Source: Bacilli bacterium (GTDB taxonomy: Bacteria > Bacillota_I > Bacilli_A > RF39 > UBA660). Taken from it: a stretch of 64,000 nucleotides of DNA. Shown piece by piece: positions 11,755 through 50,385 of the stretch; positions within the stretch are counted from its first letter, which is position 1, and each line of letters opens with the position of its first letter. Position numbers and translations under genes: made by a program. The stretch lies in contig JAFQQQ010000002.1 of the NCBI GenBank assembly GCA_017410525.1, positions 205,591 through 269,590 on the forward strand, read 5' to 3'. Under the pieces are notes generated by a model, which saw only the letters and a list, made by a program, of their open reading frames with translations, was not told the origin of the DNA and did no database searches.

Positions 11755-12084
11755 GTGGAACAAATATATAATAAATTAGTTAGGGATAATATACCAGAAA
11801 TAATAGAATCTAACGGAGAAAAACCTATAATAAGTATATTAGATGATAATAGATATAAAGAAGAATTAGAGAAAAAGTTATATGAAGAATATTTAGAAGT
11901 AATAGATTCTAGTTATAGTAGTAGAATAGAAGAATTAGCTGATATGTTAGAAGTCATTAGTGCTCTTGCTAAATTAGAAGATAAGACTTTGGATGATGTA
12001 GTGGAAGTAGCTAAAGAGAAAGTAAAAAAAAGAGGAGCTTTTGATAAAAAAATATTTTTAGAGAAGGTTATAAGCGATAAATAG
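11755..12084 (+). CDS. MazG-like / phosphoribosyl-ATP-pyrophosphohydrolase-like NTP pyrophosphohydrolase
   Basis: YNKLVRDNIPEII start and EELADMLEV helix pair. GTG start with a GGAGG RBS. Confidence 0.65.
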   Translation: MEQIYNKLVRDNIPEIIESNGEKPIISILDDNRYKEELEKKLYEEYLEVIDSSYSSRIEELADMLEVISALAKLEDKTLDDVVEVAKEKVKKRGAFDKKIFLEKVISDK

Positions 12085-12173
12085 ATTTCTTTGAATGTAG
12101 AAATCTTTTTATAATAATTTGATTTTTAATTTAAACCATGATAGTATAATAGTCAATTTAAATGGGGGATATT

Positions 12174-13415
12174 ATGAATGAAAAATACTTAATTATTAAT
12201 GCTGGTAGTTCATCTTTAAAATTTTCTTTATATGAAATTCCAGAAGTAAAAGAAATTGTAAATGGTTGCGTAGAAAAAATAGGAAATGAAGATAGTTTTT
12301 ATACTTTAAAATATGACGATAAAAAAGAAGAAAAAGTAAAAGTAATTATGAATCATACTCAAGCTGTAGAAACTATGCTTTATGAGTTGTTAATAAATAA
12401 TTTTATAAGTGATGTTAATGAAATAAAAGGAGTAGGACATAGAGTACTACATGGTGGAGAAAAATATTTTGATTCAGTTGTAATTGACGATGAAGTTATA
12501 AACGATATAGTCGATTTAACTAAATTAGGGCCACTTCACCACCCAGGTAATTTATCAGGAATACTTGCTATGCAAAAAGCAATACCACATATACCACAAA
12601 TAGCTGTATTTGATACTTCTTTTCATCAAACAATAAATGAAGAAAATTATATATATCCTATACCATACTCTTGGTATAATGAAAATGGAGTAAGAAAATA
12701 TGGCTTTCATGGGACTAGTCATAAATATATTACGGAAACTATGCAACAATATTTAGATAAAAAAGATGTTAACTTAATAATTTGCCATATTGGTAGTGGA
12801 GCTAGTATGTCTGCAATAAAAAATGGTAAAAGCTGTGATACAACAATGGGTTTAACTCCACTAGATGGACTTATGATGGGTACTCGTTCAGGCTCTATTG
12901 ATCCATCAATTATTGAATATATTTGTAAAGAAAGAAATTTAACTGTATCTGAAGTTACTAATATTTTAAATAAAGAAAGCGGTTTAAAAGGAATAAGTGG
13001 CGTAAATGATTTCAGAGATGTAACAGCTTTAGCTAAACAAGGAAATCATAATGCAAAATTAGCTATAAAATTATTTGAAAAATCAATAGTTAAATATATC
13101 GCGCAATATTATTTTGAATTAAATGGTGATGTAGATGCTATTATATTTACTGCAGGTGTAGGAGAAAATATGTCCTACGTTAGAGAAGATATAGTTAATC
13201 TTATTTCAAAACCAATGGGTATAAAAATTAATAAAGAAATTAATGATAACATTGCTAAGTTTAAGCAATATCAAAGTGGTGTTATAACAACAGATGATTC
13301 TAAAATTAAAGTAATGGTTATACCTACTAATGAAGAATTAATGATATTAAAGGATACTGTTAGATTAACTAAAAAATCAAAAGATTTAAATAAAGAGAAA
13401 AAATTAACTAAATAA
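12174..13415 (+). CDS. ackA: Acetate kinase
   Basis: INAGSSSLKF, HRVLHGG, FDTSFH, GFHGTSH and GVGEN motifs. I prefer the ATG at 12174 (GGGGGA RBS) over 12162. Confidence 0.95.
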   Translation: MNEKYLIINAGSSSLKFSLYEIPEVKEIVNGCVEKIGNEDSFYTLKYDDKKEEKVKVIMNHTQAVETMLYELLINNFISDVNEIKGVGHRVLHGGEKYFDSVVIDDEVINDIVDLTKLGPLHHPGNLSGILAMQKAIPHIPQIAVFDTSFHQTINEENYIYPIPYSWYNENGVRKYGFHGTSHKYITETMQQYLDKKDVNLIICHIGSGASMSAIKNGKSCDTTMGLTPLDGLMMGTRSGSIDPSIIEYICKERNLTVSEVTNILNKESGLKGISGVNDFRDVTALAKQGNHNAKLAIKLFEKSIVKYIAQYYFELNGDVDAIIFTAGVGENMSYVREDIVNLISKPMGIKINKEINDNIAKFKQYQSGVITTDDSKIKVMVIPTNEELMILKDTVRLTKKSKDLNKEKKLTK

Positions 13416-13436
13416 TAATATTTTAAGGAGGGAGAT

Positions 13437-14075
13437 ATGAAAGTAATTGAGTTGGAAGAAAAATATATTTTAGAATATATAAAATATATGATTTCTAGTT
13501 TTAAAACAATACCTATAGAAATAAATAATGCTAAATATCATCATAATACAAGTTATTCTGATGTACCTTTGGTTTTAAAACAAGGTATTTTGTCGGTGTC
13601 AGAATTAAATAGATTAGGTATAAAAAAATATTCTCCTGAAATATTAAATTTATGGAGTGACATAGAGTCACATATTAATGGTATAGATTCAATATCATTA
13701 TCTGTAGTTGGTTTAAAAGATTTATATGTAGATGAATTTGAATATGATCCGTTTATACCAACAAAAGTAGATTTGAATATTTCAAGTGATATATCTACAC
13801 TAAGATCAAGTATACATTATGGAAATGAATTTTTATGTTATGAAAATATAGGAATTGATAAAATAAAATCAATTGATATAAGATTACTAGAATTAATTGA
13901 AAAAAGAAAAGATTTTACAATAAAAGATATAATAAATAAATATAATTGTTTAAAGGATGTTGCATTAGCAATTAAAGAAAATAACTTAGATATTCCTTTT
14001 AGAGAAATGTCTAATGATAATTGTGCATTAGATATAACTAAAGTGTCAGAGATGCCTAAATTAATTTTAAAATAA
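13437..14075 (+). CDS. Hypothetical protein
   Basis: 212-aa ORF with a GGAGGGAG RBS. Terminator CAAATGAAA/TTTCATTTG plus T-run lies just after the stop. No family recognised. Confidence 0.55.
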   Translation: MKVIELEEKYILEYIKYMISSFKTIPIEINNAKYHHNTSYSDVPLVLKQGILSVSELNRLGIKKYSPEILNLWSDIESHINGIDSISLSVVGLKDLYVDEFEYDPFIPTKVDLNISSDISTLRSSIHYGNEFLCYENIGIDKIKSIDIRLLELIEKRKDFTIKDIINKYNCLKDVALAIKENNLDIPFREMSNDNCALDITKVSEMPKLILK

Positions 14076-14147
14076 AGCAAATGAAAAAATTTCATTTGTT
14101 TTTTTAAAATATTTATATATAATAGAGATAGAAAAAAGGTGATTTAA

Positions 14148-14324
14148 ATGATATATATAGTAAGACATGGACAGACGGATTATAATGTAGAAGGTAGATA
14201 TGGTGGTAGGATAGGTGTAGAATTAAATATTAAAGGAATTGGGCAATCACATATCATTCATAATGAATTAAAGAATATAAAGTTTGATAATGAAAAACTA
14301 AAAGAATTACAAAAATATATATAA
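14148..14324 (+). pseudogene. Truncated histidine-phosphatase (PGAM/CobC-like) gene remnant
   Basis: My translation is MIYIVRHGQTDYNVEGRYGGRIGVELNIKGIGQSH..., which carries the RHG catalytic motif. It stops after 58 codons, whereas family members run about 190-210 aa. A start-less reading frame follows to 14503. Confidence 0.6.
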
Positions 14325-14522
14325 TAGTTCATGACAATATTGATTTTGACTCTTATTTTTCAAGTTATATATTATCTAAAATACTTCAAAGTTTAAACAC
14401 AAATGCTATTTTTACTATTTTTGATGATTATAATATTGGTGATGATGATAGAAAAATAATAGATGGTTATAAAAAAGAAAAAAATAGAATTAAACAAAAA
14501 TAGAAAAAAATGTAAAAAGGTG

Positions 14523-14551
14523 TTGACAAACAAAAAAAATTAGAGTATTAT
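14523..14551 (+). promoter_or_regulatory. Sigma-A-type promoter of the leader and RSH operon
   Basis: TTGACA (14523-14528), 17-nt spacer, TATTAT (14546-14551). Confidence 0.6.
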
Positions 14552-14593
14552 TTAATGTAATATTTTTATCTTTTTAGACAAAGGAGGAATATT

Positions 14594-14740
14594 ATGGTTA
14601 ATTGCTTTAACATAGAAAGATCAGTGATAAAATCAAAATCTAATGTTATTTGCAACAGCTTCTGCTGCAATACTTTAGTATGCTTTTCAATTCTTTCTTG
14701 TCTAAATGAAAAGATGAAAAGCGATATAGCAAAGTCTTAA
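14594..14740 (+). CDS. Small Cys-rich ORF (48 aa, 6 Cys) within the operon leader; either a RiPP-type precursor or an attenuation leader peptide
   Basis: My translation is MVNCFNIERSVIKSKSNVICNSFCCNTLVCFSILSCLNEKMKSDIAKS. A strong RBS AAAGGAGGAATATT precedes the ATG. The TAA stop (14738-14740) lies in the apical loop of the terminator hairpin. Below the size cutoff of the supplied track. Confidence 0.55.
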   Translation: MVNCFNIERSVIKSKSNVICNSFCCNTLVCFSILSCLNEKMKSDIAKS

Positions 14741-14772
14741 TGACTTTTCTTGTCGCCTTTCATCTTTTTTCT
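14709..14772 (+). terminator. Intrinsic terminator / attenuator between the leader ORF and the RSH gene
   Basis: Outer stem AAGATGAAAAGCGA (14711-14724) pairs with TCGCCTTTCATCTT (14753-14766): 13 bp plus 1 mismatch. Inner stem AAAGTC/GACTTT spans 14731-14747. A TTTTTTCTT run follows. The competing pairing is GCTTTTCA (14682-14689) with TGAAAAGC (14715-14722). Confidence 0.7.
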
Positions 14773-14803
14773 TATAAAAATATAAAAGGAAAAGGAGGGA
14801 TTT

Positions 14804-16237
14804 ATGATAACTATTGAAAAATTATTAAATCATGTAAATACTTATAATCCTGGAGAAGAAGAAATTATAAGAAAAGCTTATGAGTATGCTGATTATTTAC
14901 ATGGAAATCAAATTAGACAAAGTGGAGAACCATATATTACACATCCTTTGAATGTTGCTTATATTTTATCTGAAATGCATGCAGATAGAGATACAATATG
15001 TGCTGCACTCTTACACGATACTCTAGAAGATACAAATACAACTAAAGAAGAAATAGCTGATTTATTTAATAAAGAAATAGCTAACTTAGTAGACGGAGTA
15101 ACAAAGATAAGTAAAATGAATTTTTCTAGTAAAGCAGAACAAAATTTAGCAAACACAAGAAAAATCATAACAGGGCTTACAGAAGATGTAAGAATAATAA
15201 TAATAAAATTAGCCGATAGACTTCATAACATGAGAACTTTAGAATTTAAATCTGAATTTAAGCAAAAAGAAAATTCTTTAGAAACAATGGAAATATTTGT
15301 ACCGCTTGCTTATTATATAGGTGCTTATAGAATAAAAAGTGAGCTAGAAGATATATCTTTTAAATATTTAAAACCAGATAAATATAAAGAAATAGAACAT
15401 AGAATAAATAACTCTAGTATTGAAAATAATAATTGCTTAAATGAAATGTTATTGAATATAGAAGAAATATTAAATAATGAGTCAATACCACATGAAATAA
15501 AAGTTAGAACAAAAAATATATATGGAATATATAAAAGAATAGATAATGGAGAAAACAAAATAAGTGATATACACGATTTATTATCTTTAAAAATAATGGT
15601 AGATGATATAAAAAATTGTTATATAACACTAGGTCTTATACATGATAAATATCATCCAATAAATGGAAGATTTAAAGATTATATTTGTAATCCTAAAACA
15701 AATCTATATAAATCTTTACATTCTACAGTATTTGGGCCTAATGAAAAATTAGTACAAACACAAATAAGAACATTTGATATGGATAAAATAGCATCCTTTG
15801 GTTTAACAGCATATTGGGATATAAATAAAGGTGATGCAAGATATACTATGCAACAAGATTTAAGAGATAATTTTCAATTTTTTAAATCATTATCAGATAT
15901 AAATGTTATGTTTAAGGATAATCAAGATTTTGTATCTCAAATAAAGAATGAATTATTCGCAAATAAAATTTATGTGTATACTACTAACGGTAAAATAATA
16001 GAATTACCTAAAGGATCAAATATTATTGATTTAGCTTGTTATATGGACATAGAAAATGTATTAATAGGAGCTAAAGTAAATGATGAAATAGTTCCTATTG
16101 ATTATATTTTAAAAAATAAAGATAGGGTAATACCACTTATAGATGAATTATCTTATGGATATAGAGAAAGTTGGATAGAAAAAGCGAATACAGTTTATGC
16201 TAAAAAGAAAATAAAGGGGTTAATAGAGAGTAGGTAA
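14804..16237 (+). CDS. RelA/SpoT homologue: HD hydrolase + RelA/SpoT-type domain + TGS, lacking the usual C-terminal regulatory domains
   Basis: HD region: YITHPLNVA...LLHDTLEDT...ADRLHNMRT. Synthetase-like region: RTKNIYGIYKRI...RFKDYICNPKTNLYKSLHST...VQTQIRTFDM...ASFGLTAYW. TGS-like region: IYVYTTNGKIIELPKGSNIIDLACYM. It is 477 aa, against about 730 aa for typical long Rel proteins. Confidence 0.8.
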   Translation: MITIEKLLNHVNTYNPGEEEIIRKAYEYADYLHGNQIRQSGEPYITHPLNVAYILSEMHADRDTICAALLHDTLEDTNTTKEEIADLFNKEIANLVDGVTKISKMNFSSKAEQNLANTRKIITGLTEDVRIIIIKLADRLHNMRTLEFKSEFKQKENSLETMEIFVPLAYYIGAYRIKSELEDISFKYLKPDKYKEIEHRINNSSIENNNCLNEMLLNIEEILNNESIPHEIKVRTKNIYGIYKRIDNGENKISDIHDLLSLKIMVDDIKNCYITLGLIHDKYHPINGRFKDYICNPKTNLYKSLHSTVFGPNEKLVQTQIRTFDMDKIASFGLTAYWDINKGDARYTMQQDLRDNFQFFKSLSDINVMFKDNQDFVSQIKNELFANKIYVYTTNGKIIELPKGSNIIDLACYMDIENVLIGAKVNDEIVPIDYILKNKDRVIPLIDELSYGYRESWIEKANTVYAKKKIKGLIESR

Positions 16238-16240
16238 AAA

Positions 16241-17401
16241 ATGTTATTTAGATTAGTTGCAATTCGTTGTCATAAAAATATAATTTTCTGTGACAGTTTT
16301 AATGAAAACTTTGAAAAAATACAATTAGCAATTCCATCAGAACTTTTCAACTCATTAGGACTTAAAGTAGGTAGTGTAATTTCTACAAATTATCAAATTA
16401 CTAAAAATAAATATGGAAATGATTTGTATTTCATAAATGATGTACAAAATGTATCAAATCATAATAAAAATATATCTTTTAAATCTATAAATACAAAATT
16501 ATCATCCATGAATCAATCTAGTTTTATTAGTGCATTAAATGGTGGAGTTAATTTAAAATATTGGGAAATGAAACAAAAACTTTTAGAAGAAATTAGAAAA
16601 TTTTTAGTAAATAGAAGTTACATAGAAGTAAATACTTCATTGTTAATGGATAATAGAGGTACTAGTACTGTTAACCCTATGCAAGTAAATGGTAAATACT
16701 GTGGTAATAAATATTTAAAAATAACTCATGAATTAGAATTAAAAAAAATTTGTTATCTTACTTTAAAATCATTATTTGAGATAGGATATGTAACAAGAGA
16801 TGTATATTCTACTAGTAAATCTGCTAATCAATATTTAACATTTGAATTAGTTGCACCTATAGAAGATACATTAACAGCAGAAGAATTATATATTTATGTT
16901 TATGAGATTGCAATTAAGTTGGCTGAATCATATGGTATTTCTTATAATGAGATATTTAATAAAATAGAAACAGTGGATGTTTTAAAATTATATTTATCAA
17001 ATCATAAAAAGATTGATAAGAAAGAATTCCTTGAGTTTTATAAAAAACTATTAGAATTAGAAAAAAATATAATATATGTAAATGCGCCTACCAATACTCC
17101 TTTAGCGAAAGAATCAGAATACGGAATACCTTTAGAAACAAAATGGGCTATAGGAAATAGGGGTATAGGTCATGGATATTATGATCAAAATCAGTTATCG
17201 GTTATAGAAAATTTATTTGAATTACAAAAAGATGCACTAAAAGAAAAAGGGATAGATTCCAGTGTTGATAAAGAATACTTAATGACTTTAATGTATGCAG
17301 GTATAGATACAAAAAGTTTAAATATAGGGATTGATAGATTTATGTATAAATTTTTAGGTTTAGATCACGAAGAGAAAGCAATAAAAATATTAGGATTATA
17401 G
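16241..17401 (+). CDS. Divergent class IIb aminoacyl-tRNA-synthetase paralogue (Asp/Asn/Lys-RS-like: OB fold plus a compact catalytic core)
   Basis: N-terminal OB-fold-like pattern (LFRLVAIRCHKNIIFCDS...KIQLAI...GSVISTNYQI). Motif 1-like IRKFLVNRSYIEVNTSLL. Degenerate motif 2, GYVTRDVYSTSKSANQYLTFELVAP. Motif 3, LNIGIDRFMYKFLGL. Confidence 0.6.
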   Translation: MLFRLVAIRCHKNIIFCDSFNENFEKIQLAIPSELFNSLGLKVGSVISTNYQITKNKYGNDLYFINDVQNVSNHNKNISFKSINTKLSSMNQSSFISALNGGVNLKYWEMKQKLLEEIRKFLVNRSYIEVNTSLLMDNRGTSTVNPMQVNGKYCGNKYLKITHELELKKICYLTLKSLFEIGYVTRDVYSTSKSANQYLTFELVAPIEDTLTAEELYIYVYEIAIKLAESYGISYNEIFNKIETVDVLKLYLSNHKKIDKKEFLEFYKKLLELEKNIIYVNAPTNTPLAKESEYGIPLETKWAIGNRGIGHGYYDQNQLSVIENLFELQKDALKEKGIDSSVDKEYLMTLMYAGIDTKSLNIGIDRFMYKFLGLDHEEKAIKILGL

Positions 17402-17411
17402 AGGTGAACAA

Positions 17412-18671
17412 ATGAAAGAAGATAAAATATTATTTTTGTATCCGCCGACAGTTTATGCTAACCATAGTATGTTTAAGCATTTTACTTATTTTGGCGAAAC
17501 GATAGATGTTATAAGTAGATATTATAAAAATATAAAAGTTTTAGACTGTGCAGTTGAACAAATAGAACAAAAGATAATATTTAATAATTTTAAAGATAGT
17601 AATTTATTAGTAATGGAAATAGAACCTTATAACATAGATGTTGCACTATCTTTAGGAAAATTATATAAATCATTCAACAGTAAAGGAAAAATTATAGTAT
17701 ATGGTACTGCAATTACAATAATGCCCAATTATTTTATGAAACAACATTTATTTGATTATATAATTAATGATGGTAATTTTGCTGTTGGTATATTGGGGGT
17801 AATGAATGAAATTTTAAATACAGAATATCCTTATGAAGTTAAGAGTAAATATTATGAATTAATAAATGGTGAGTATATAATGAAGGGTGATAATTTTCAA
17901 CTTCCAATAAAAGATTGGGGTGTTGGATATAATAAATTATTACCATTAGAAAAATATAAATTTTATAATAATGGTATGTTTGAATTAACTGTTCAAACCG
18001 GTTGCCCTTTTAATTGTTCTTTTTGTTCTGAAAAAATATTATTTGATAAGTATTGTGGAACAAAATATAGAGATGTTGAAGATATTATTAAAATAATGAA
18101 AAATATTAATGACGATTTTAATGAAATATATTTTTCTGCTACAACAATGACAGCAAATAGAAAATGGACTGAAAATTTATGTACTAGATTAATTGAAGAA
18201 GGTAATAAAATGCCTTGGAGAACAGTTACTAGAATTGATTGTGTTGATGAAGAATTGTTAAAATTAATGAAAAAATCAGGATTAAAGAAAATTTGTTTTG
18301 GTGTTGAAACGTTTGATGATAAATTATTAGAAGAGATAAATAAAAAACAAAATGCAAATAATGTAATTAATATATTAAAATTATGCAATAAATTAGGTAT
18401 TAAAGCCAAAGCTTTACTTATGTTGGGTATACCAGGACAAACAGCAAAAAATGTTTTTGATACAGTGAAAATATTAAAAGATTTAAATGTGGAATATAGA
18501 TTTAAAGAATATTCTCCTATTCGTGAAGCACATATATTAGATTCTAAAAATTCTGATATCTCTGATATGATTCCTATTTTTAGTAGATATGAATATAGAA
18601 CAAGTAGTATTCCTGGAATAACTAGTGAAGAATATATGGAATTACTTTTTCCTACAGAATATGTGAGGTAG
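17412..18671 (+). CDS. Radical SAM enzyme with an N-terminal B12-binding-like domain (class B type)
   Basis: CPFNCSFC (CxxxCxxC) at about residue 198, preceded by a Rossmann-like ~150-aa domain (ILFLYPP...LLVMEIEP...IIVYGTA). Confidence 0.75.
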   Translation: MKEDKILFLYPPTVYANHSMFKHFTYFGETIDVISRYYKNIKVLDCAVEQIEQKIIFNNFKDSNLLVMEIEPYNIDVALSLGKLYKSFNSKGKIIVYGTAITIMPNYFMKQHLFDYIINDGNFAVGILGVMNEILNTEYPYEVKSKYYELINGEYIMKGDNFQLPIKDWGVGYNKLLPLEKYKFYNNGMFELTVQTGCPFNCSFCSEKILFDKYCGTKYRDVEDIIKIMKNINDDFNEIYFSATTMTANRKWTENLCTRLIEEGNKMPWRTVTRIDCVDEELLKLMKKSGLKKICFGVETFDDKLLEEINKKQNANNVINILKLCNKLGIKAKALLMLGIPGQTAKNVFDTVKILKDLNVEYRFKEYSPIREAHILDSKNSDISDMIPIFSRYEYRTSSIPGITSEEYMELLFPTEYVR

Positions 18672-18678
18672 ATTAGCA

Positions 18679-19707
18679 ATGATTGAACATTTAAAAAGTG
18701 GTTTGTCAATATCGACACATTTAGGTTGTGGATTAAAGTGCTCGTATTGTATTTTGTCAACCATGGACGGTTTTAATGAGGGCCCGGTATTACAAATTAA
18801 ACCCAAGGATTTAATATTTAAATTATTTAATGAATATGAATTTTATTGCAAAAATAAAACACCTTTAATGTTAAATAATAGAACAGATCCATTTTTACCA
18901 ACTGTAACACCGTATACTTTAGAAATTTTAGATTTATTAATTGAAAAGCAAGTCGAGTCTCCAATTATAATAATTTCAAAGTTTGCGCCGCCTACAGTTT
19001 TAAAAAAATATTTTTCTTTATTAAATATTTGTTACTTTTATTCTTATTCTGGTATAGATACTGATTTTAACTATAATAAACTTAAAAGTGATTTACAACT
19101 AATAAAAAATGTTGTTCCTAGGTCTTCTAGATTTCATTATTTTAGACCGATAATACCAGGAGTGAACGATGATTTTGAATTTATGAAAAAAATATTAAAT
19201 ATATTTAGTGAAAATGAATTTGATGCCACTGTAATTGCTGGATTTAGGGTAACTAATCTAAATAAACATTTAATAAAAAAGGAAACGATAGATGTTGAAA
19301 AAATTGATTATAATCATAAATTAGTAGATAGTAGTATATATGAAATAAATAAAATATTTAATGCCGAAAATTATCGTATATTTAGACATACTAGTTGTGC
19401 TATAGCAAACCATTTTAATTCTTTTAACAAATTAAATTATTTTTCAAAATGTGGTCATTGCTTTGAATCATGTCCTAACTATGACAACTGTTTAAATAAA
19501 AGAATAAATATTAAAGATATTTTAAAAGAACTTAAAGAAAAATTTGGTAATGAATATAATTTTAAAATTAAAGATAACAAAATTGAAATATTGTCTTTAT
19601 GTACTCAAGAATTAGTTGCTTATATAAAAAATGCTTATGGGTGTGAGATTATTGCAACCAATGTTAAATTATCAAAATCTGAAGAGGTGATTTTAGGTGA
19701 AAAATAA
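18679..19707 (+). CDS. Radical SAM enzyme (compact, with a C-terminal Cys cluster)
   Basis: GCGLKCSYC near the N-terminus. A later cluster, CAIANH...CGHCFESCPNYDNC, could hold an auxiliary Fe-S cluster. Confidence 0.65.
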   Translation: MIEHLKSGLSISTHLGCGLKCSYCILSTMDGFNEGPVLQIKPKDLIFKLFNEYEFYCKNKTPLMLNNRTDPFLPTVTPYTLEILDLLIEKQVESPIIIISKFAPPTVLKKYFSLLNICYFYSYSGIDTDFNYNKLKSDLQLIKNVVPRSSRFHYFRPIIPGVNDDFEFMKKILNIFSENEFDATVIAGFRVTNLNKHLIKKETIDVEKIDYNHKLVDSSIYEINKIFNAENYRIFRHTSCAIANHFNSFNKLNYFSKCGHCFESCPNYDNCLNKRINIKDILKELKEKFGNEYNFKIKDNKIEILSLCTQELVAYIKNAYGCEIIATNVKLSKSEEVILGEK

Positions 19708-20248
19708 TATTATAGTGGGATGCGATTTACATAATACTTTGTTATTAAGCAATGAAGCTTGGATAAAAGCATTTATAAGTCTTAATTCTAAATTGGATAT
19801 AAATGAAATTTCTAATTTTATATATAGTAAAAAATCAAGAAAAGAAATGGCTAGATTATATAATATTGATTATAATGTATTATTAAATACTTATCATAAA
19901 AATTGTATTCCTAATATAAAATTATTAAATTTTATTAAAGAACTTAAAGTTAAAGGGTTTCCTATTGTTTTAATTTCTTCATCAAGCGAAGAAAAAGTAA
20001 AAAAAGATTTAGAGAAACTAAAAGAATATATTTCTTTTGATAAAATTTATACAAAAGAAACATTTTCTAAAAGTGTTTCTAAAGATTGGGATATGGTTAT
20101 AAAAGAATATAGAGCAAAATTTATGGTATATATAGGAAATGACTATGATGAAGATATAATACATAATGATAAAGTAATATCTATTCTTTCAGGACATTTT
20201 TTTACAGAATTGAAAAAAAACGGTTTTTTAGAAGAAAGAGGTAAATAA
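19697..20248 (+). CDS. HAD-superfamily protein with variant motif I
   Basis: GCDLHNTL (DxH instead of DxD), LISSSS (motif II), GNDYDEDI (motif IV). GTG start overlaps the upstream gene by 11 nt. Confidence 0.55.
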   Translation: MKNNIIVGCDLHNTLLLSNEAWIKAFISLNSKLDINEISNFIYSKKSRKEMARLYNIDYNVLLNTYHKNCIPNIKLLNFIKELKVKGFPIVLISSSSEEKVKKDLEKLKEYISFDKIYTKETFSKSVSKDWDMVIKEYRAKFMVYIGNDYDEDIIHNDKVISILSGHFFTELKKNGFLEERGK

Positions 20249-20250
20249 AA

Positions 20251-21168
20251 ATGGAAATATATTTAAAAAAAGAAGATATAGAAAGTTATCTAATAAATCA
20301 GGAAGAAAATATAAAAAACATGATTGATAATTTAGATTCAAGTTGGCCACATTATAATGCAGTGAAAAAATTATTAGAAGAGACTATGTTAGAAATAAAA
20401 AGAAAAGATATACATTGTAATGCTGTTTTATCTTCTACTAAGCATGAACGAAAAATAGAAAAATATGTAAATTGGGTTGAGGTTTATAGACTAGCAAATT
20501 ATCATTTTTCAAAATATACTAGTAGTAATACTTCTTATAGTGAAGGATTGTTTTCAACATTACTTGCGTTAAATAGTATGTATATACATAATAAAAAAAT
20601 TAAGGATATTGGAATAATTGGTTGTGGTCCAGGAAGAAGCGTTTTAGATTTTTCTTTAGCTTATCCAGATGCCACTATTTATGGTTTAGATTATTCCTTA
20701 GTTTCCTTAGTTTTAGCAAGAAATATTGTTAGTACAAATAATAAAAATATTGAGATTATAAGAAGAGATGATGAAGTAGTATTAGATAAAGTTGAAAGCT
20801 TTAATAGGACAAATTGTAAATGGGGAATGTTTGATTTAACTAAATCTAATTTAAATGAAAAATTTGATATCGTAGTATGTTCAAATGTAATAAATTTAAT
20901 GCCTAATCATAAAGATGCTATAAATAAAATTTATGATATGATAAAACCTAATGGATATTTAATATATGCTGATTTAACTGGTTGGAGATTAGATAGAAAG
21001 AAAGAACAACAATTACTTTCTGATAAAAAAGCTATAAAAAATAGTTTTGAAAACGTAGGCTTTGAAACTATAGAATGTTTTGATGGTGGACCATATATAG
21101 AAAAAGAAAATAAAGATAATTTCACGTTTTATAAACAAACTTATTATATAGGAAGGAAGGTAAAATGA
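20251..21168 (+). CDS. Class I SAM-dependent methyltransferase
   Basis: IGIIGCGPGRSVLDF (motif I), GLDYS, VVCSNVINLM. Confidence 0.75.
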   Translation: MEIYLKKEDIESYLINQEENIKNMIDNLDSSWPHYNAVKKLLEETMLEIKRKDIHCNAVLSSTKHERKIEKYVNWVEVYRLANYHFSKYTSSNTSYSEGLFSTLLALNSMYIHNKKIKDIGIIGCGPGRSVLDFSLAYPDATIYGLDYSLVSLVLARNIVSTNNKNIEIIRRDDEVVLDKVESFNRTNCKWGMFDLTKSNLNEKFDIVVCSNVINLMPNHKDAINKIYDMIKPNGYLIYADLTGWRLDRKKEQQLLSDKKAIKNSFENVGFETIECFDGGPYIEKENKDNFTFYKQTYYIGRKVK

Positions 21169-21824
21169 AAAATATAATATTATTAAGTGGACCTGATAAA
21201 ACAAAATATTTTGCTAAGGAAATATCAAAAGAAATAAAAAATAACGTTACGCATCCAACAAATATGGTTGTAATACCGGCTGATCCAAATAATTATGAAA
21301 AAAATGATAAACAATTTAAAGGGAATGAAAGTGTAGTTGGAGTATTTAAAACATTTAAAAAAATATTTCCAGATATAAATATTGTTTTGTTAGATAATAG
21401 AGTAGATTCTACAAGTGGATTAAACAAGTTGAAGAAAGCAGATATTATTTATCTACTTGGTGGAAATCCTTTTATTCAATTAGAATACTTGCAAAAAAAT
21501 AATTATAGTGATACAATATGCAGCACAAATGCATTGGTTATGGGAGTTAGTGCTGGATCAATGAATTTAGCTGTTGATTCTTATTATTCTAAAGATGAGG
21601 ATTATCCAGAAAGTGTAATTTATAAAGGATTAGGAATTGTTGACATGACTATAGATCCACATTTTGATATTAACAATGAAGAACAGGTTAAAGAAATAAA
21701 AGTTAATTCAAAAGATAGAAAAATTATTGGTTTACCAAATGATTCAGCAATAATTGTTTCAAATAATAATATAAAATATATTGGTGATATTTATTTATTT
21801 GAAAATGGTGAATTAACTAATTAA
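21165..21824 (+). CDS. Peptidase S51 (dipeptidase E / cyanophycinase-like) family protein
   Basis: LLGGNPF, GVSAGSMN (nucleophile Ser context), DPHF. ATGA overlap with the methyltransferase gene. Confidence 0.6.
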   Translation: MKNIILLSGPDKTKYFAKEISKEIKNNVTHPTNMVVIPADPNNYEKNDKQFKGNESVVGVFKTFKKIFPDINIVLLDNRVDSTSGLNKLKKADIIYLLGGNPFIQLEYLQKNNYSDTICSTNALVMGVSAGSMNLAVDSYYSKDEDYPESVIYKGLGIVDMTIDPHFDINNEEQVKEIKVNSKDRKIIGLPNDSAIIVSNNNIKYIGDIYLFENGELTN

Positions 21825-21855
21825 TTAGTTAGTTTACAAGATAGGGGGAATTGGA

Positions 21856-23433
21856 ATGAATTGGGCATTAGAAGAAGCAAAAAAATTAGTTGAAAAGCAT
21901 CCTGAAAAGGAAGAATTTGTAATCGCATCGGGGGTTAGTCCATCTGGATTTATACACATAGGAAATTTTAGAGAAATCGTTACTACATTTTTTGTAGGTA
22001 AAGAATTAGAAAATTTAGGGAAAAAAGTTAGATTTATATTATCGTTTGATGATTTTGATAGATTTAGAAAAGTTCCTAAAGGAATGCCGGAAAGTTATAG
22101 TAAGTATATAGGAATGCCTTATACTAGTATACCTAGTCCATTTAGTGAAAATAAAACTTATGCTAAAGAAATGGAAGATATATTTGTAAGTGAATTAAAT
22201 AGACTAGGAATTAATCCTGAAACCATATCTCAAACAGAACAATATAAAAGTGGAAGATATGATGATAAAATTAAATTAGCTATGGAACAAAGAAAAAAAA
22301 TATTTGATATAATGGCTAATTATAAAACTCAAGAATTTACAGAAGAAGATAGAAATAATTATTATCCTATAAGTTTATATTGTGAAGAATGTGGTAAAGA
22401 TTCAACAACTATATTAAATTATAATGATGTAACAGGTGATGTAGAATATAAATGTACTTGTGGGCATCATCATATTCAAAATATAAATAAATGTGGTAAT
22501 ATAAAGTTACAATGGAAAATTGATTGGCCAATGAGATGGCAAAAAGAAGGGGTAATTTTTGAACCAGGTGGTAGAGATCATTCTGCAGAAAATGGAAGTT
22601 ATGCTGTATCAAAAGAAATATCTAAACGAATTTTTGAATATGAAGCACCATCCTATGTAGCCTATGATTTTATTGGTATTAAAGGCGCTAATGGTAAAAT
22701 GGCTTCATCAACAGGAAATGTTTTAACATTAACTGATTTATTAAGTGTTTATGATAAAAATATAATATTATGGTTTTATGCCAAAAATAGACCTAATCAT
22801 CAATTTAATATAGCGCTTGATGAAGATGTATTAAGATTCTATACAGAATATGATAGGATGGTAAAAGCATATTTTGAAGGTAAATTAGATGATAAAAATT
22901 CTAGTATTATATCATTAACAGGAGTAACTAGTGGGTATGTTAATAATCCTAATTTTGGATATATAGCAAACTTTTTACCGATGGTAAGTTATAAAGAAGA
23001 AGCACTTGCAAAATTATTAAGTAAAGAAAATATTGATTGTTCTACATTATATTTTAAAAATAGATTACTAAGAGCAACCAATTGGTTAGAAAAATATAAT
23101 AATAGTAAAATAAAAGTGTTAGATGAATTTAATCAAGAATATTATGAAACATTAAGTGATGAAGAAAAAGAATGGTTAGAAAAAACTTTAGTTGTTTTAC
23201 AAAATGAATATGAAACTACTCAGGATTTACAAACAGATTTATATGCTATTGTAAAAAATGGTATAGAAGATTCTAAAGAATTAAAAAATAAACAAAGAAG
23301 ATATTTTCAGATAATTTATAATTTAATTATAGGAAAAGATAATGGACCAAAAATGGGATTATTGCTATCTGCAATGGATTATGAAGTTGTAAAATCTAAA
23401 TTGCAAAAATCAAAAGAAAAAAAATTAAGATAA
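21856..23433 (+). CDS. lysK: Class I lysyl-tRNA synthetase (LysK-type)
   Basis: SGFIHIGNFREI (HIGN), GKMASSTGN (KMSKS-equivalent), Cys-rich insertion YCEECG...CTCGHHH. 525 aa. Confidence 0.8.
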   Translation: MNWALEEAKKLVEKHPEKEEFVIASGVSPSGFIHIGNFREIVTTFFVGKELENLGKKVRFILSFDDFDRFRKVPKGMPESYSKYIGMPYTSIPSPFSENKTYAKEMEDIFVSELNRLGINPETISQTEQYKSGRYDDKIKLAMEQRKKIFDIMANYKTQEFTEEDRNNYYPISLYCEECGKDSTTILNYNDVTGDVEYKCTCGHHHIQNINKCGNIKLQWKIDWPMRWQKEGVIFEPGGRDHSAENGSYAVSKEISKRIFEYEAPSYVAYDFIGIKGANGKMASSTGNVLTLTDLLSVYDKNIILWFYAKNRPNHQFNIALDEDVLRFYTEYDRMVKAYFEGKLDDKNSSIISLTGVTSGYVNNPNFGYIANFLPMVSYKEEALAKLLSKENIDCSTLYFKNRLLRATNWLEKYNNSKIKVLDEFNQEYYETLSDEEKEWLEKTLVVLQNEYETTQDLQTDLYAIVKNGIEDSKELKNKQRRYFQIIYNLIIGKDNGPKMGLLLSAMDYEVVKSKLQKSKEKKLR

Positions 23434-23456
23434 ACTAAATTTGTTTATCTTTTTTG
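23428..23456 (+). terminator. Intrinsic terminator closing the operon
   Basis: AGATAAAC (23428-23435) pairs with GTTTATCT (23443-23450), followed by TTTTT. Confidence 0.7.
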
Positions 23457-23514
23457 TGTTATAATAAGATTGTAGGGGATAAGTATAATGAAAAAAATTA
23501 TTTAAGGAGGAAAT

Positions 23515-23997
23515 ATGATAAGAGAAGCTTTAGAAAAAGATGCTGAGAGAATTGTATATATTAATGTAATGTCTTGGAAAAATACGTATAAACATATTTT
23601 TCCACAAGATTTTTTAGATAGTCTTAATCCTATGAGTATTGATAATATTGAAAAATGTAAGAAAAAAATAAATCAATATATAGTATATGAAGTTGATAAT
23701 AAGGTAGTAGGGTTTGCTAGATTTGGATTAAATAAGAAAAATTATGGTAATGAGTATGGAGAAATACATGCTTTATATTTAGATGATAATTATAAGGGAA
23801 TGAATATAGGAACTGAGCTTGTAAAGTATATATTTGAAAAATTGAAGTCAACATATAAATATGTCTTGATAAGTACTTTAGTTGAAAATAATGCTAATAC
23901 ATTTTATAAAAAATTAGGTGGAAAATTTATAGGTCAAAGTGAATTTGAATTAGAAGGTAAAAAATATTTAGAAAATGTATATGAATATGTTTTATAA
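23515..23997 (+). CDS. GNAT N-acetyltransferase
   Basis: ALYLDDNYKGMNIGTELV acetyl-CoA-binding loop. 160 aa. Confidence 0.75.
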   Translation: MIREALEKDAERIVYINVMSWKNTYKHIFPQDFLDSLNPMSIDNIEKCKKKINQYIVYEVDNKVVGFARFGLNKKNYGNEYGEIHALYLDDNYKGMNIGTELVKYIFEKLKSTYKYVLISTLVENNANTFYKKLGGKFIGQSEFELEGKKYLENVYEYVL

Positions 23998-24059
23998 TTG
24001 ATATAAAAATATATATAACTATAATAAGAAAGATTTCTATTTTTATAGAAATAAAAAAG

Positions 24060-24767
24060 GTGTTTATGAATAAATTTTTAAAAGATATAGAATTTGATAA
24101 TGAATATATAAATTCATGTATAACTAAAGTAGATAATAAATTAAAAGAATATATAAACAATAAAATATTACCTGAATATGATTTAAATGATGAAGGTCAT
24201 AATAAAAATCATATAGAGTTTGTTCTTAAAAGAGCGCTTGAACTAAGTAAAAATTATGATATAAATTACAATATTTTATATGTGTCTGTTAGTTTTCATG
24301 ATATTGCTTGTCATATAAATAGAGAAGAACATGAAGTTTTATCTGCTAATATAGCTTATAAAGATGAATTTTTAAATAAATTCTTTAATAAAGAAGAATT
24401 AACTATAATAAAAGAAGCAATAGAAGACCACAGGGCATCTTCAGATAAAATACCACGTAATATATATGGAAAAATATTATCTTCAGCTGATAGAAAAGTA
24501 GATATAAAAACATATTTGATTTCCTCTTTATTCTTTCAAGTAACAGATATTAGTAATTTAGATATGAATGAAGCAATAGAACAATCTTATAATCATGCTA
24601 TTAAAAAATTTGGTAAGAATGGGTATGCTACTAATAAGTTTTACGTAGATGACAAAAGATATAAAGAATTTCTTACAAACTTACAATATCTAATTGATAA
24701 TAAAGATGAGTTTTATAAATTAGCTGAAATAGTATTTAATGAAGTTAAAAGCAATAAAAAGAATTAA
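24060..24767 (+). CDS. HD-domain phosphohydrolase
   Basis: GHNKNHIEFV ... VSFHDIACH (H...HD). Terminator AGATAAAC/GTTTATCT at 24869-24889. Confidence 0.65.
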   Translation: MFMNKFLKDIEFDNEYINSCITKVDNKLKEYINNKILPEYDLNDEGHNKNHIEFVLKRALELSKNYDINYNILYVSVSFHDIACHINREEHEVLSANIAYKDEFLNKFFNKEELTIIKEAIEDHRASSDKIPRNIYGKILSSADRKVDIKTYLISSLFFQVTDISNLDMNEAIEQSYNHAIKKFGKNGYATNKFYVDDKRYKEFLTNLQYLIDNKDEFYKLAEIVFNEVKSNKKN

Positions 24768-39912: not shown

Positions 39913-39989
<77 letters not shown>

Positions 39990-40003
39990 TCTTATTAAAA
40001 TAT

Positions 40004-40080
40004 GGCCGGTTGGTGAAGCGGCTTAACACACATGCCTTTCACGCATGCATTCACGGGTCCGAATCCCGTACCGGTCACCA
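40004..40080 (+). tRNA. tRNA-Glu (anticodon UUC)
   Basis: Acceptor GGCCGGT/ACCGGTC, anticodon stem CATGC/GCATG with loop CTTTCAC, T-arm GGGTCCGAATCCC, CCA encoded. Confidence 0.9.
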
Positions 40081-40090
40081 TATGTTAATT

Positions 40091-40119
40091 AACCCTTGAT
40101 TTTCAAGGGTTTTTATTTT
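40091..40119 (+). terminator. Terminator after tRNA-Glu
   Basis: AACCCTTGA TTT TCAAGGGTT followed by TTTATTTT. Confidence 0.7.
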
Positions 40120-42471: not shown

Positions 42472-42546
42472 TGCCCCATAGCCAAGCGGTAAGGCAGTGG
42501 ACTCTGACTCCAATATGCGAAAGTTCGAATCTTTCTGGGGCAACCA
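42472..42546 (+). tRNA. tRNA-Gln (anticodon CUG)
   Basis: TGCCCCATAGCCAAGCGGTAAGGCAGTGGACTCTGACTCCAAT...TGGGGCAACCA. The anticodon loop is CTCTGAC. Confidence 0.9.
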
Positions 42547-42549
42547 AGT

Positions 42550-42636
42550 GCAAGAATGGCGGAATTGGTAGACGCACTACTTTGAGGGGGTAGTGACTAT
42601 ATGGTCGTGGGAGTTCAAGTCTCCTTTCTTGTACCA
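42550..42636 (+). tRNA. tRNA-Leu (anticodon GAG), long variable arm
   Basis: GCAAGAATGGCGGAATTGGTAGACGC..., anticodon loop TTGAGGG, variable arm GTGACTATATGGTCGT, T-arm GGGAGTTCAAGTCTCC, CCA encoded. Confidence 0.85.
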
Positions 42637-42638
42637 AT

Positions 42639-42712
42639 GCTGATTTAGTTTAGTGGTAAAACAAAAGCATGGTAAGCTTTAGAGGACTGTTCAATTCAGT
42701 CATTCAGCACCA
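42639..42712 (+). tRNA. tRNA-Thr (anticodon GGU)
   Basis: GCTGATTTAGTTTAGTGGTAAAAC..., anticodon stem AAGC/GCTT with loop ATGGTAA, T-arm GACTGTTCAATTCAGTC, CCA encoded. One T-T mismatch in the acceptor stem. Confidence 0.75.
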
Positions 42713-42717
42713 CTTTT

Positions 42718-42791
42718 GGGAAACTTGCTCAATTGGTTAGAGCGCTTGCTTGACGTGCAAGAGATCAAGGGTTCGAGTCCTATGTTTCTCA
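42718..42791 (+). tRNA. tRNA-Val (anticodon GAC), CCA not encoded
   Basis: GGGAAACTTGCTCAATTGGTTAGAGCG, anticodon stem CTTGC/GCAAG with loop TTGACGT, T-arm AGGGTTCGAGTCCT. The 3' end is ...GTTTCTCA followed by CTA. Confidence 0.8.
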
Positions 42792-50309: not shown

Positions 50310-50385
50310 GTCTCCTTAGCTCAGTTGGTAGAGCAACTGACTCTTAATCAGTGGGTCTAGGGTTCGAATCCCTAAGGGGACACCA
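50310..50385 (+). tRNA. tRNA-Lys (anticodon CUU)
   Basis: GTCTCCTTAGCTCAGTTGGTAGAGCAACTGACTCTTAATCAGTGGGTCTAGGGTTCGAATCCCTAAGGGGACACCA. A terminator follows at about 50396-50432. Confidence 0.92.

Follow-up and report, generated by a model that had tools for sequence, protein, structure and literature searches.

A putative ribosome-occlusion attenuator ahead of an RSH and lysyl-tRNA synthetase operon in AT-rich Bacilli

The operon and its leader

The window, i.e., the whole stretch of 64,000 nucleotides of Bacilli DNA that was analysed, harbors an operon of eight genes on the forward strand (14804-23433), whose products were assigned by Pfam and NCBIfam scans. The first gene encodes an RSH protein with HD, RelA_SpoT and TGS domains and without C-terminal regulatory domains (14804-16237); its ATG at 14804 is preceded by the Shine-Dalgarno (SD) sequence GGAGGG (14794-14799). 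It is followed by the catalytic core of a class-II LysRS/EpmA-like enzyme (16241-17401), a B12-type radical SAM protein (17412-18671), a second protein with a CxxxCxxC motif that we count as the second radical-SAM protein (18679-19707), a HAD protein (19697-20248), a SAM methyltransferase (20251-21168), a peptidase of family S51 (21165-21824) and a class-I LysRS (21856-23433). The same gene order is repeated in loci L002-L029, and a C39-like peptidase gene lies upstream in two of the loci examined, L013 and L014. The Pfam and NCBIfam scans of the operon revealed neither a PqqD/RRE domain nor a transporter, none of its genes is a known resistance gene, and a literature search on this combination of genes retrieved nothing relevant.

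Upstream of RSH and on the same strand, a sigma-70-type promoter at 14523-14551 (TTGACA at 14523-14528, a spacer of 17 nt and TATTAT at 14546-14551) matches the consensus at 11 of 12 positions and represents the top promoter match in 12000-24500; transcription would thus start at about 14558. The SD sequence GGAGGA, read directly from the letters at 14583-14588, stands 5 nt ahead of the ATG of a leader ORF of 48 codons (MVNCFNIERSVIKSKSNVICNSFCCNTLVCFSILSCLNEKMKSDIAKS, 14594-14740) that ends with the TAA at 14738-14740 and is predicted to be translated. This frame is free of internal stops, whereas the other two hold 5 and 3. Its codon usage is atypical and poor (CAI-like index of 0.47 vs. 0.77; GC3 of 0.30 vs. 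0.11), and six rare codons succeed one another at 14651-14668, a run of Cys, Asn, Ser and Phe codons (codons 20-25).

The distal part of this ORF enters a hairpin of 62 nt (14708-14769; 5' arm 14708-14736, apical loop 14737-14741, 3' arm 14742-14769) that we predict to be an intrinsic terminator of transcription. The outer stem joins 14711-14724 to 14753-14766 by 13 bp with one A.C mismatch, the inner stem pairs AAAGTC (14731-14736) with GACTTT (14742-14747), and the apical loop, TTAAT, encloses the stop codon of the leader ORF. An earlier note, made from the letters of this DNA, had described the bipartite hairpin, its 13 bp and single mismatch, and had placed the stop codon in the loop; all its coordinates agree with the sequence, and the folding that it proposed, carried out with RNAfold, recovered the hairpin and extended it to 14708-14769. 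With a free energy of -28.2 kcal/mol (z -8.3), the structure is more stable than all 200 shuffled sequences, and in a fixed-frame scan of the whole window it ranks first among hairpins followed by a T-run (-25.8 against -19.1 for the runner-up). The hairpin lies 35 nt upstream of the RSH start codon and is followed by the U-tract TTTTTTCTT at 14765-14773, whose first five T (14765-14769) also close the extended stem on its 3' side. The ribosome-binding site of RSH does lie downstream, as had been noted, at a distance of about 20-28 nt instead of exactly 30. A simple consensus terminator scan of 12000-24500 returned no site and left this hairpin, with its interrupted and AT-rich stem, unflagged.

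Searching Rfam permissively (E up to 10) over 14000-15200 gave 17 matches, all far below gathering scores; most were miRNA or snoRNA models, accompanied by a few other low-scoring RNA models, and no riboswitch or T-box was among them. At the gathering threshold, the whole window yielded tRNAs only and seven homologous loci yielded zero matches. The region, the window and the homologous loci therefore all agree with the earlier observation that no T-box or known riboswitch signature is present here.

Conservation of the leader in other lineages

The leader of the window was compared with those of L001, L005, L009, L013, L020, L027, and L023. These loci were obtained by exact-protein look-ups; scans of genomes and of metagenomes with the LysRS-like protein gave one locus each. 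The LysRS-like proteins of the eight operons are 40-75% identical (64-75% for most), and in a MAFFT alignment of the eight leaders the promoter alone can be aligned, with an invariant TGTTGAC. All eight present the same succession of a TTGAC promoter, an SD, a short ORF and an A-tract/hairpin/U-tract; an SD-like purine run occurs in every homologous leader, at the same spacing to the ATG as in the window. The ORFs measure 19-56 codons, and the hairpins range from -11 to -28 kcal/mol (-11 to -22 for the seven homologues, all with U-tracts). The terminator stands 20-35 nt ahead of the first operon gene except in L023, where the two lie 267 nt apart, possibly with a second promoter in between; the ORF of L023 may therefore be a small, unrelated gene.

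From the ATG to the base of the hairpin, the eight leaders hold no stop in frame, compared with 25 and 34 in the other frames. The chance of such an open frame is 0.02-0.27 per leader, with a product of about 2e-10 that ignores shared ancestry and the choice of start. The ORF reaches the 5' base of the terminator in all eight leaders, the first nucleotide of the stop being located at -1 to +63 from the hairpin base. The stop falls in the apical loop in the window, L009 and L013, on the 5' side of the hairpin in L001 and L020, and at its base in L027 and L023, while the ORF of L005 runs through the hairpin and ends in an ATGA that overlaps the RSH start. We estimate that a stop would be expected within an AT-rich hairpin of 45-60 nt in about 3/4 of cases; the apical-loop position is therefore weaker evidence than the fact that the ORF reaches the hairpin. 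The element is not essential to the operon, since the close relative L004, which lacks the hairpin and has an unstructured 5' UTR, and the distant operons L024, L030, and L031 do without it (the enzyme core stands without leader ORF in L004, L024, L030, and L031/L032).

At shorter distance, phmmer, run against 1.8 billion representatives, identified eight close relatives of the leader peptide and no wider peptide family. In the nine peptides of this clade, window included, the frame is preserved through in-frame indels and the residues EMKSD, encoded by the 5' arm of the terminator, are kept; in eight of the nine the stop follows KSD after exactly 4 codons, whose residues are variable. The N-terminal 19 residues are near-invariant and the remainder varies, most of all in the patch of Cys and rare codons; each peptide has 3-6 Cys and no Cys position is invariant. 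A hairpin in the N-terminal coding region was considered as the cause of this N-terminal conservation and rejected, as its fold (14598-14658) is insignificant (z -0.86). The conserved 19 residues are unexplained by a model in which only the act of translation counts. Within other leader types, the 0-2 differences (L013/14/16; L020/22; L005-8) are too few to inform on selection.

Amino acid composition presents a bias toward U-rich codons, with Phe, Ser and Cys raised and Glu and Gly lowered; across leaders, Phe and Ser alone are broadly raised, and they form no runs. The Cys counts of the eight leaders are 6, 0, 5, 1, 1, 0, 2, and 0, the enrichment being limited to the clade of the window and L005. 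Lys occurs at background frequency, and the sensing of Lys codons, considered for the two LysRS-type genes of the operon, was rejected on this ground. No conserved C-terminal motif was found across the leader types compared. In the window, L005 and L009, the codon usage of the leader ORF is unlike that of real genes, which, together with the preference for U-rich codons, fits selection at the RNA level rather than at the protein level.

These data bear on the possibility that the ORF is a small-peptide gene, whose product would be either a small hydrophobic peptide or a RiPP-like precursor on which the LysRS-like and radical-SAM enzymes act. In that case a leaky terminator or a 3'-end stabiliser, formed by the hairpin, would ensure a high ratio of peptide to enzyme transcripts, as downstream of lantibiotic structural genes. 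The strong SD and promoter are in line with such a gene, as is the place of the ORF at the head of an operon with two radical-SAM proteins, a methyltransferase and a peptidase, and a near-invariant N-terminus followed by a variable, Cys-rich rest resembles a leader with its hypervariable core. The enrichment in Cys within the clade and the C39-like peptidase gene upstream in L013 and L014 point in the same direction. However, no common leader or core can be recognised across lineages whose enzymes are 64-75% identical, no Cys is invariant, and their number is 0-1 in four leader types. The L001 ORF counts merely 19 codons, in L005 the terminator and the ribosome-binding site of RSH code for the C-terminus and the stop overlaps the RSH ATG, and the enzyme core occurs without such an ORF in L004, L024, L030 and L031. 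The poor codon usage, the restriction of the phmmer matches to close relatives, and the lack of RRE/PqqD domain and transporter in the Pfam scan argue against it as well; the S51 peptidase is not a known leader peptidase. We thus regard a small-peptide gene as unlikely, and the control of precursor-peptide stoichiometry that the earlier note had offered as an alternative is disfavoured. Improbable, in our opinion, is a scheme in which the ORFs encode fast-evolving Cys/Phe/Ser-rich substrates of a class-II LysRS-like ligase and of the two radical-SAM enzymes, with an N-terminal recognition part conserved clade by clade and a stop within the terminator that couples translation of the precursor to transcription of the enzymes. 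Should peptides indeed be substrates, they would form a new RiPP-like class, in which a paralogue of aminoacyl-tRNA synthetases decorates a ribosomal peptide.

Pairings upstream of the terminator

Just ahead of the terminator, a pyrimidine-rich segment of the distal leader (14682-14705) contains GCTTTTCA (14682-14689), the motif TTCTTT (14691-14696) and the stretch predicted to pair with the SD region at 14573-14590. The sequence GCTTTTCA is exactly complementary to TGAAAAGC (14715-14722) in the 5' arm of the terminator; the local fold of -11.1 kcal/mol is equalled by 4 of 200 shuffles, i.e., it is modestly above chance. An extended duplex of 14657-14697 with the 5' arm, which includes this pair, reaches -17.8 kcal/mol in the window, at the 1% tail of shuffles. 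In none of the seven homologous leaders does the complementarity exceed chance. The competing antiterminator proposed earlier is, in the window, an exact and modestly above-chance complement, and it is not a conserved feature.

The effect of a ribosome on the fold was modelled as an equilibrium footprint. A ribosome at any codon upstream leaves the terminator with a probability of about 0.9 (0.8-1.0 among the eight leaders). Values of 0-0.5 are reached solely with an A site at most about 15 nt from the 5' arm or within the hairpin, in all eight leaders. No upstream stall position lowers terminator formation in this equilibrium model, which does not support the competing antiterminator of the earlier note.

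A stall-sensing attenuator of the trp type was nevertheless weighed, at least for the window. A ribosome stalled at codons 20-25 would free 14657-14697 as an antiterminator, and a shortage of charged tRNA, perhaps that of Cys, would induce the operon. Besides the complementarity and the six successive rare codons, the leader offers segments 1 (the SD), 2 (14682-14705), 3, and 4 that could form a 1:2/2:3/3:4 set. Since trp-type leaders, too, have a terminator that exceeds the antiterminator in stability, equilibrium modelling is compatible with a kinetic switch. Such leaders have their stop codon well upstream of the terminator, unlike the present one, whose stop is inside it. The results on homologous leaders and on ribosome position given above also count against this type of attenuator: the complementarity is at chance, no amino acid occurs in a conserved run, Cys number 0-1 in four leader types, Lys is not enriched, and within the clade the peptide varies most in the Cys patch. 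Taken together, we hold stall-sensing of this type to be quite unlikely. The sensing of Cys-tRNA supply, suggested by the earlier note, is disfavoured: Cys are enriched only in the clade of the window and in L005, they have no invariant position and number 0-1 in four leader types among the eight. As a feature of the family it was rejected, the count of Cys varying among leaders and their positions within the clade.

The patch of Cys and rare codons (codons 20-25) can itself fold into a weak hairpin at 14650-14670 (8 bp with one A.C mismatch and a loop of 3 nt). This hairpin, which had been noticed before, does exist, but its stability of -6.4 kcal/mol does not exceed chance (14 of 200 shuffles are as good) and it is probably no functional element. 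In the minimum free energy fold of the full leader, 14573-14581 and 14583-14590 are paired with 14689-14705, and a comparison with 49 control genes predicts more extensive pairing of the SD region in the leaders (p = 0.003). Finally, the last 40 nt before the hairpin are T-rich in all eight leaders, six of which have TTNTTT 13-35 nt before it; the TTCTTT of the window is a possible NusG-type pause motif.

A predicted mechanism of ribosome occlusion

We propose, as the reading that we consider rather probable, that the leader is an attenuator working by ribosome occlusion, in which translation of the leader is predicted to prevent termination ahead of the RSH operon. Transcription would begin at about 14558 from the strong promoter. 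When no ribosome is close behind RNA polymerase, the hairpin at 14708-14769 would form and release an RNA of about 215 nt. A ribosome on the last dozen or so codons, or at the TAA of the loop, would on the contrary cover the 5' arm with its footprint and block the hairpin, so that the polymerase proceeds into the genes from RSH to class-I LysRS. The default state of the operon would thus be off, and leader translation at the right time would turn it on; the peptide as such is probably dispensable. Two accessory features may contribute: the T-rich TTCTTT (14691-14696) could pause the polymerase just ahead of the terminator, and the pairing of 14689-14705 with 14573-14590 would shut the leader to late ribosome loading. 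Our best guess is that the signal would be the general capacity for translation or initiation rather than a single amino acid.

As a ribosome near the end of the ORF must melt the terminator, read-through would be coupled to translation of the leader. This coupling, already suggested by the earlier note, finds its support at the sequence level in the eight unalignable leaders with an SD-led ORF extending to at least the 5' base of the terminator, and in the position of the stop in eight of nine clade peptides. RNA polymerase is said to outrun ribosomes in Bacillus subtilis, a finding attributed to Johnson et al. in 2020. Occlusion would then need a pause, to which the short T-rich motif is the one pointer.

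The T-rich sequence just before the hairpin would also be in line with another control of the terminator, by an RNA-binding protein, an sRNA, or NTP-sensitive pausing in this tract, or with a constitutive partial terminator, the ORF being incidental or serving for reinitiation at the first gene. The clade-conserved N-terminal coding region, devoid of predicted structure, could be a binding site for a protein or an sRNA, and the overlap of stop and start in L005 would suit reinitiation. This however leaves unexplained why an SD-led frame is open as far as the terminator in eight diverged leaders; no known RNA motif was found by Rfam, and the distance of 39-64 nt from stop to start in most leaders is long for reinitiation. 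We consider these other modes of control very unlikely.

If occlusion does operate, an operon for a (p)ppGpp synthetase/hydrolase and a lysyl-tRNA synthetase, which also carries an uncharacterised set of LysRS-like and radical-SAM enzymes, would be licensed by ongoing translation of its leader. This would form a direct feedback from translational status to the hardware of the stringent response and of tRNA charging, and the leaders would represent an uncurated family of attenuators in Bacilli of gut and rumen that are uncultured and very rich in AT. Since their architecture is conserved and their sequence is not, libraries of covariance models miss such attenuators; a frame open up to the terminator across unalignable leaders exemplifies a test that could be applied to regulatory uORFs in general. 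What is gained is one more instance of a known principle, in a system open to experiment.

Comparison with known leaders

The proposed mechanism has precedents, among them experimental ones from Firmicutes (pil1 and tlrB, below), and it is the setting, an operon of the stringent response and lysyl-tRNA synthetase, that is new. In attenuators of the trp, his and pheL type, a leader peptide similarly precedes an intrinsic terminator and the position of the ribosome controls transcription, but their runs of cognate codons, conserved antiterminator, stop upstream of the terminator and induction by starvation-dependent stalling are features of which none is conserved here.

The orf12 leader of tet(M) on Tn916, reportedly described by Su, He and Clewell in 1992, is said to contain rare codons (Cys and Met) and to overlap the repeats of a terminator; faster translation of orf12 was, by the same account, proposed to let ribosomes catch the polymerase and thus prevent termination. 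A later study did not support this role: toeprinting gave no signal, and the MIC was unchanged in a start-codon mutant (bioRxiv 10.1101/2021.03.24.436905). Both cases have a short leader ORF with rare codons that overlaps a terminator, whereas tet(M) is a resistance determinant on a transposon.

In the tlrB (yxjB) leader of B. subtilis, formation of the terminator hairpin is disturbed by a ribosome close to the stop codon, a NusG-dependent pause at a T-rich site allows the leader to be translated in time, and an SD-sequestering structure blocks further translation of the leader (Yakhnin et al., 2019; PMC6851288). Tylosin, acting through an RYR arrest motif, induces this resistance methyltransferase, whose control is mainly translational (PMC6851288). 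A putative leader peptide with a predicted terminator, a T-rich site and a predicted pairing of the SD are all present in our case, in which, unlike tlrB, neither an arrest motif nor a resistance gene is evident.

In the pil1 and pil3 loci of S. gallolyticus, an SD-led leader ORF likewise lies ahead of a premature terminator, a stem-loop (-18.7 and -28.2 kcal/mol) (Danne et al., 2014; PMC3894217). Leader stops inside the hairpin, shortly before it or past it give high expression of pil1, and loss of the ATG or of the RBS gives low expression, the terminator being destabilised by the ribosome; the length of the ORF is switched by slippage of GCAGA repeats (phase variation), with a default stop 39 nt upstream of the hairpin (PMC3894217). 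The present leader shares with pil1 its Firmicute host and an SD-led ORF ahead of a terminator hairpin, but it precedes RSH and LysRS genes instead of pili, lacks repeats and has its stop fixed in or at the hairpin. Any regulation must hence act on translation, or on coupling itself.

A leader ORF that enters an intrinsic terminator is likewise found in pyrBI and pyrE of E. coli, where, according to what Turnbough, Jensen and co-workers are said to have established, the ORF leads into or through the terminator, a close ribosome blocks the hairpin, and a U-rich tract upstream slows the polymerase so that the ribosome catches up. Those systems sense UTP and govern pyrimidine genes in a Gram-negative organism, unlike the present leader, for which there is no evidence of NTP sensing. 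The pyrBI ORF ends beyond its terminator, as does, among the leaders compared here, that of L005 only.

Leader architecture

The leader of the window lies on the forward strand and starts at a near-consensus promoter (TTGACA-17-TATTAT, 14523-14551) that is the top match within 12000-24500. It comprises a Shine-Dalgarno (SD) sequence GGAGGA (14583-14588), a short ORF of 48 codons (14594-14740) and a long interrupted hairpin predicted at 14708-14769, and is followed by the SD (14794-14799) and ATG (14804) of the gene encoding the RelA/SpoT homologue (RSH). The hairpin is formed by an outer stem of 13 pairs plus one A.C mismatch (14711-14724/14753-14766) and an inner stem (14731-14736/14742-14747), it runs into the T-run TTTTTTCTT (14765-14773), and the ORF stop TAA (14738-14740) sits inside its 5-nt apical loop; checked on the sequence, the coordinates of the earlier note for both stems and the stop were all right. 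Its predicted fold reaches -28.2 kcal/mol (z -8.3, 0/200 shuffles equally stable), and a scan of all T-runs ranks it as the most stable T-run-abutting hairpin of the whole window (-25.8 vs -19.1 for the runner-up). A simple consensus terminator scan of 12000-24500 missed it, presumably because the stem is AT-rich and interrupted. A gene remnant is found just upstream of the promoter (14148-14503): its 58-aa ORF covers no more than the first 46 of 194 positions in a histidine-phosphatase profile, and the continuation, which is out of frame, matched no family.

DNA upstream of the operon was readable for nine lineages with close operons, and eight of them present the same architecture, namely the window and the homologous loci L001, L005 (identical in L006-L008), L009, L013 (same type in L014 and L016), L020 (also L022), L027 and L023. 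All eight leaders harbor a TGTTGAC promoter, which is their sole alignable part, and an SD with an ATG-initiated ORF of 19-56 codons; each homologous leader has an A-tract/hairpin/U-tract of -11 to -22 kcal/mol, and the terminator lies 20-35 nt from the first operon gene, except in L023 (267 nt). These 267 nt, between the small-ORF terminator and the LysRS-like gene (L023 5735-6000), hold a promoter-like TTGCTA-17-TATAAT, so that the small ORF of L023 may be an independent unit. Since two leader-bearing operons (L001 and L023) are devoid of RSH, the leader belongs with the operon promoter rather than with RSH itself. No such leader was found in the close relative L004, nor in the distant operons L024, L030 and L031/L032.

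The eight leader peptides are unrecognisably different in sequence, yet in every leader the ORF stays open between its start codon and the base of the hairpin. The count of stops is 0 in this frame, compared with 25 and 34 in the two others. The chance of an open frame is 0.02-0.27 per leader, giving a product of ~2e-10 if ancestry and start choice are ignored. Stop positions vary, from the hairpin base (L027, L023) or its 5' side (L001, L020) to the apical loop (window, L009, L013). In L005 (4372-4544, same in L006-L008), the stop lies beyond the hairpin: the 56-codon ORF crosses it entirely and its TGA overlaps the RSH start (ATGATG), an ATGA overlap that suggests direct translational coupling of leader to RSH. 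The conserved quantity is an ORF reaching the terminator. The stop in the loop, stressed in the earlier note, is weaker evidence, as a frame open at the hairpin base likely meets a stop by chance within a 45-60-nt AT-rich hairpin. The coupling of read-through to leader translation that was proposed there gains comparative support from the eight open frames. Control of the terminator by a trans-acting factor or NTP levels, the ORF being incidental, would leave this maintained frame unexplained and appears distinctly improbable.

Proposed ribosome occlusion

A 30-nt ribosome footprint was set on each codon of the eight leaders in turn, and terminator pair probabilities were computed. With the ribosome anywhere upstream, the modelled terminator probability remained at 0.8-1.0, and in 8/8 leaders it collapsed only when the A site was no more than ~15 nt from the 5' arm or inside the hairpin. 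Complementarity between upstream leader and 5' arm, as required for an antiterminator, exceeded chance in the window alone, where the extended duplex reaches -17.8 kcal/mol (1% tail of shuffles). Occlusion is therefore the simplest model fitting all leaders, and the attenuator would most likely work in this manner: a ribosome translating the leader end would block hairpin formation, hence termination, and without it the very stable hairpin would terminate transcription.

A trp-type stall sensor might be envisaged in the window, where the 8-mer GCTTTTCA (14682-14689) is exactly complementary to 14715-14722 of the 5' arm and six consecutive rare codons occur at 14651-14668. The antiterminator described earlier is thus real as a sequence match and modestly above chance here (-11.1 kcal/mol locally, 4/200 shuffles as good), but it is not above chance in other leaders; the additional Cys hairpin at 14650-14670 exists and is weak (-6.4 kcal/mol, equalled by 14/200 shuffles). 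As such a sensor is not conserved and equilibrium modelling lends it no support, stall sensing is improbable, although kinetics could still permit it.

Several properties of the leaders are compatible with occlusion. The 40 nt preceding each hairpin are T-rich (0.42-0.55 vs 0.33), and a TTNTTT is found 13-35 nt upstream of the hairpin base in six of eight leaders (window 14691-14696, L001, L013, L020, L027, L023). The motif is similar to the one that NusG-dependent Bacillus pauses have on the non-template strand, and could provide a NusG-type pause giving the ribosome time to catch up. In the pooled leaders, U-rich codons (Phe, Ser, Cys) are over-represented, and Glu and Gly are under-represented; codon usage of the window leader is far from that of genes (CAI-like 0.47 vs 0.77, GC3 0.30 vs 0.11), and the CAI is also low in the L005 and L009 ORFs. 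The atypical usage, codon bias and T-rich tract fit an RNA-level rather than a protein-level role.

Predicted folds pair the pyrimidine-rich distal segment (14689-14705) with the SD region of the leader itself (14573-14590, 17 bp); when the 3' part is folded, 14690-14702 pairs instead with the region of the RSH SD (14787-14801). The predicted pairing of the SD is higher in the leaders than in 49 window control genes (Mann-Whitney p = 0.003). Such sequestration would shut the leader to late ribosomes, and the decision might then hinge on prompt initiation.

Signal and precedents

Cysteines number 6, 0, 5, 1, 1, 0, 2 and 0 per leader and their positions vary within the window clade, leaving the Cys-tRNA sensing suggested earlier unsupported as a family property; Lys codons are at background frequency in the pooled composition. 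Our best guess for the signal is general translation or initiation capacity, or polymerase-ribosome spacing. Either read-out would make sense as an input to an operon encoding a (p)ppGpp enzyme and a LysRS.

Occlusion itself is already well studied elsewhere, E. coli pyrBI and pyrE being the classic cases. The S. gallolyticus pil1 locus is highly expressed with the leader stop within, next to or past the hairpin, and poorly after ATG or RBS knockout (PMC3894217), and B. subtilis tlrB is a second experimental Firmicute precedent for a ribosome effect on a leader terminator (PMC6851288). New here is an uncurated family of putative leader-ORF attenuators before a conserved RSH/LysRS-like/radical-SAM/class-I LysRS operon in uncultured AT-rich Bacilli.

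Leader peptides and downstream operon

Eight tightly packed genes follow the leader (14804-23433). They encode, in order, the RSH (477 aa; HD, synthetase and TGS domains, C-terminal regulatory part absent), a class-II LysRS/EpmA-like catalytic core, a radical-SAM protein of the B12 type, a second CxxxCxxC protein for which Pfam, NCBIfam and PDB gave no match, a HAD hydrolase, a SAM methyltransferase, an S51 peptidase and a class-I LysRS. A collection of 5.8 billion proteins contains 30 relatives of the LysRS-like protein, each of them from a metagenome or MAG labelled Bacilli or Erysipelotrichaceae. Gene order is kept across the recovered loci (L002-L029); the distant relatives L023, L024, L030 and L031 keep a core of LysRS-like, two radical-SAM and HAD genes, usually accompanied by S51 and/or class-I LysRS, the latter fused to a tRNA-binding domain in L024 and L030. 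The operon could represent a modification pathway of the lysine/tRNA/EF-P type, or else a biosynthetic cluster that carries a resistant copy of LysRS.

Full phmmer and profile searches with the window peptide gave eight close relatives only, and no wider peptide family. In the nine-peptide alignment, indels are in-frame, codons 1-19 (14594-14650, residues MINCFNIEKSVIKSKSNVI) are nearly invariant (window, P0032, P0034-P0040) and the remainder is variable; the RNA of this N-terminal region shows no significant structure in the window. The motif 'EMKSD', encoded by the terminator 5' arm, is also conserved, and the stop comes exactly four variable codons later in 8/9 peptides.

A conserved N-terminus before a variable, Cys-rich remainder, next to radical-SAM genes, is what a real RiPP-like peptide gene with a leaky terminator might present. 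Such a gene is nevertheless unlikely: peptides are not conserved across lineages whose enzymes are 64-75% identical, the clade alignment lacks an invariant Cys, the L005 C-terminus derives from terminator and RSH RBS sequence, the L001 ORF has just 19 codons, the enzyme core occurs elsewhere without the ORF, neither an RRE domain nor a transporter was found, and codon usage is poor. Together with the odd operon, the N-terminal conservation leaves a small chance of something more novel.

In L006 (4542-5972), RSH is broken into two gene calls (152 and 319 aa) behind a leader identical to that of L005, reflecting either a frameshift/nonsense variant or faulty assembly. Only the L013 lineage carries a Peptidase_C39_2-like gene upstream of its leader, ~0.5 kb away (L013 3391-3981; L014 237-899). 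Elsewhere in the window, seven tRNA genes form three groups (39913-40077, 42472-42791 and 50310-50382), several being followed by canonical A-tract/hairpin/U-tract terminators (e.g., T-runs at 40110 and 50423). G+C content is 22-34% across the window, and GC skew is positive throughout.
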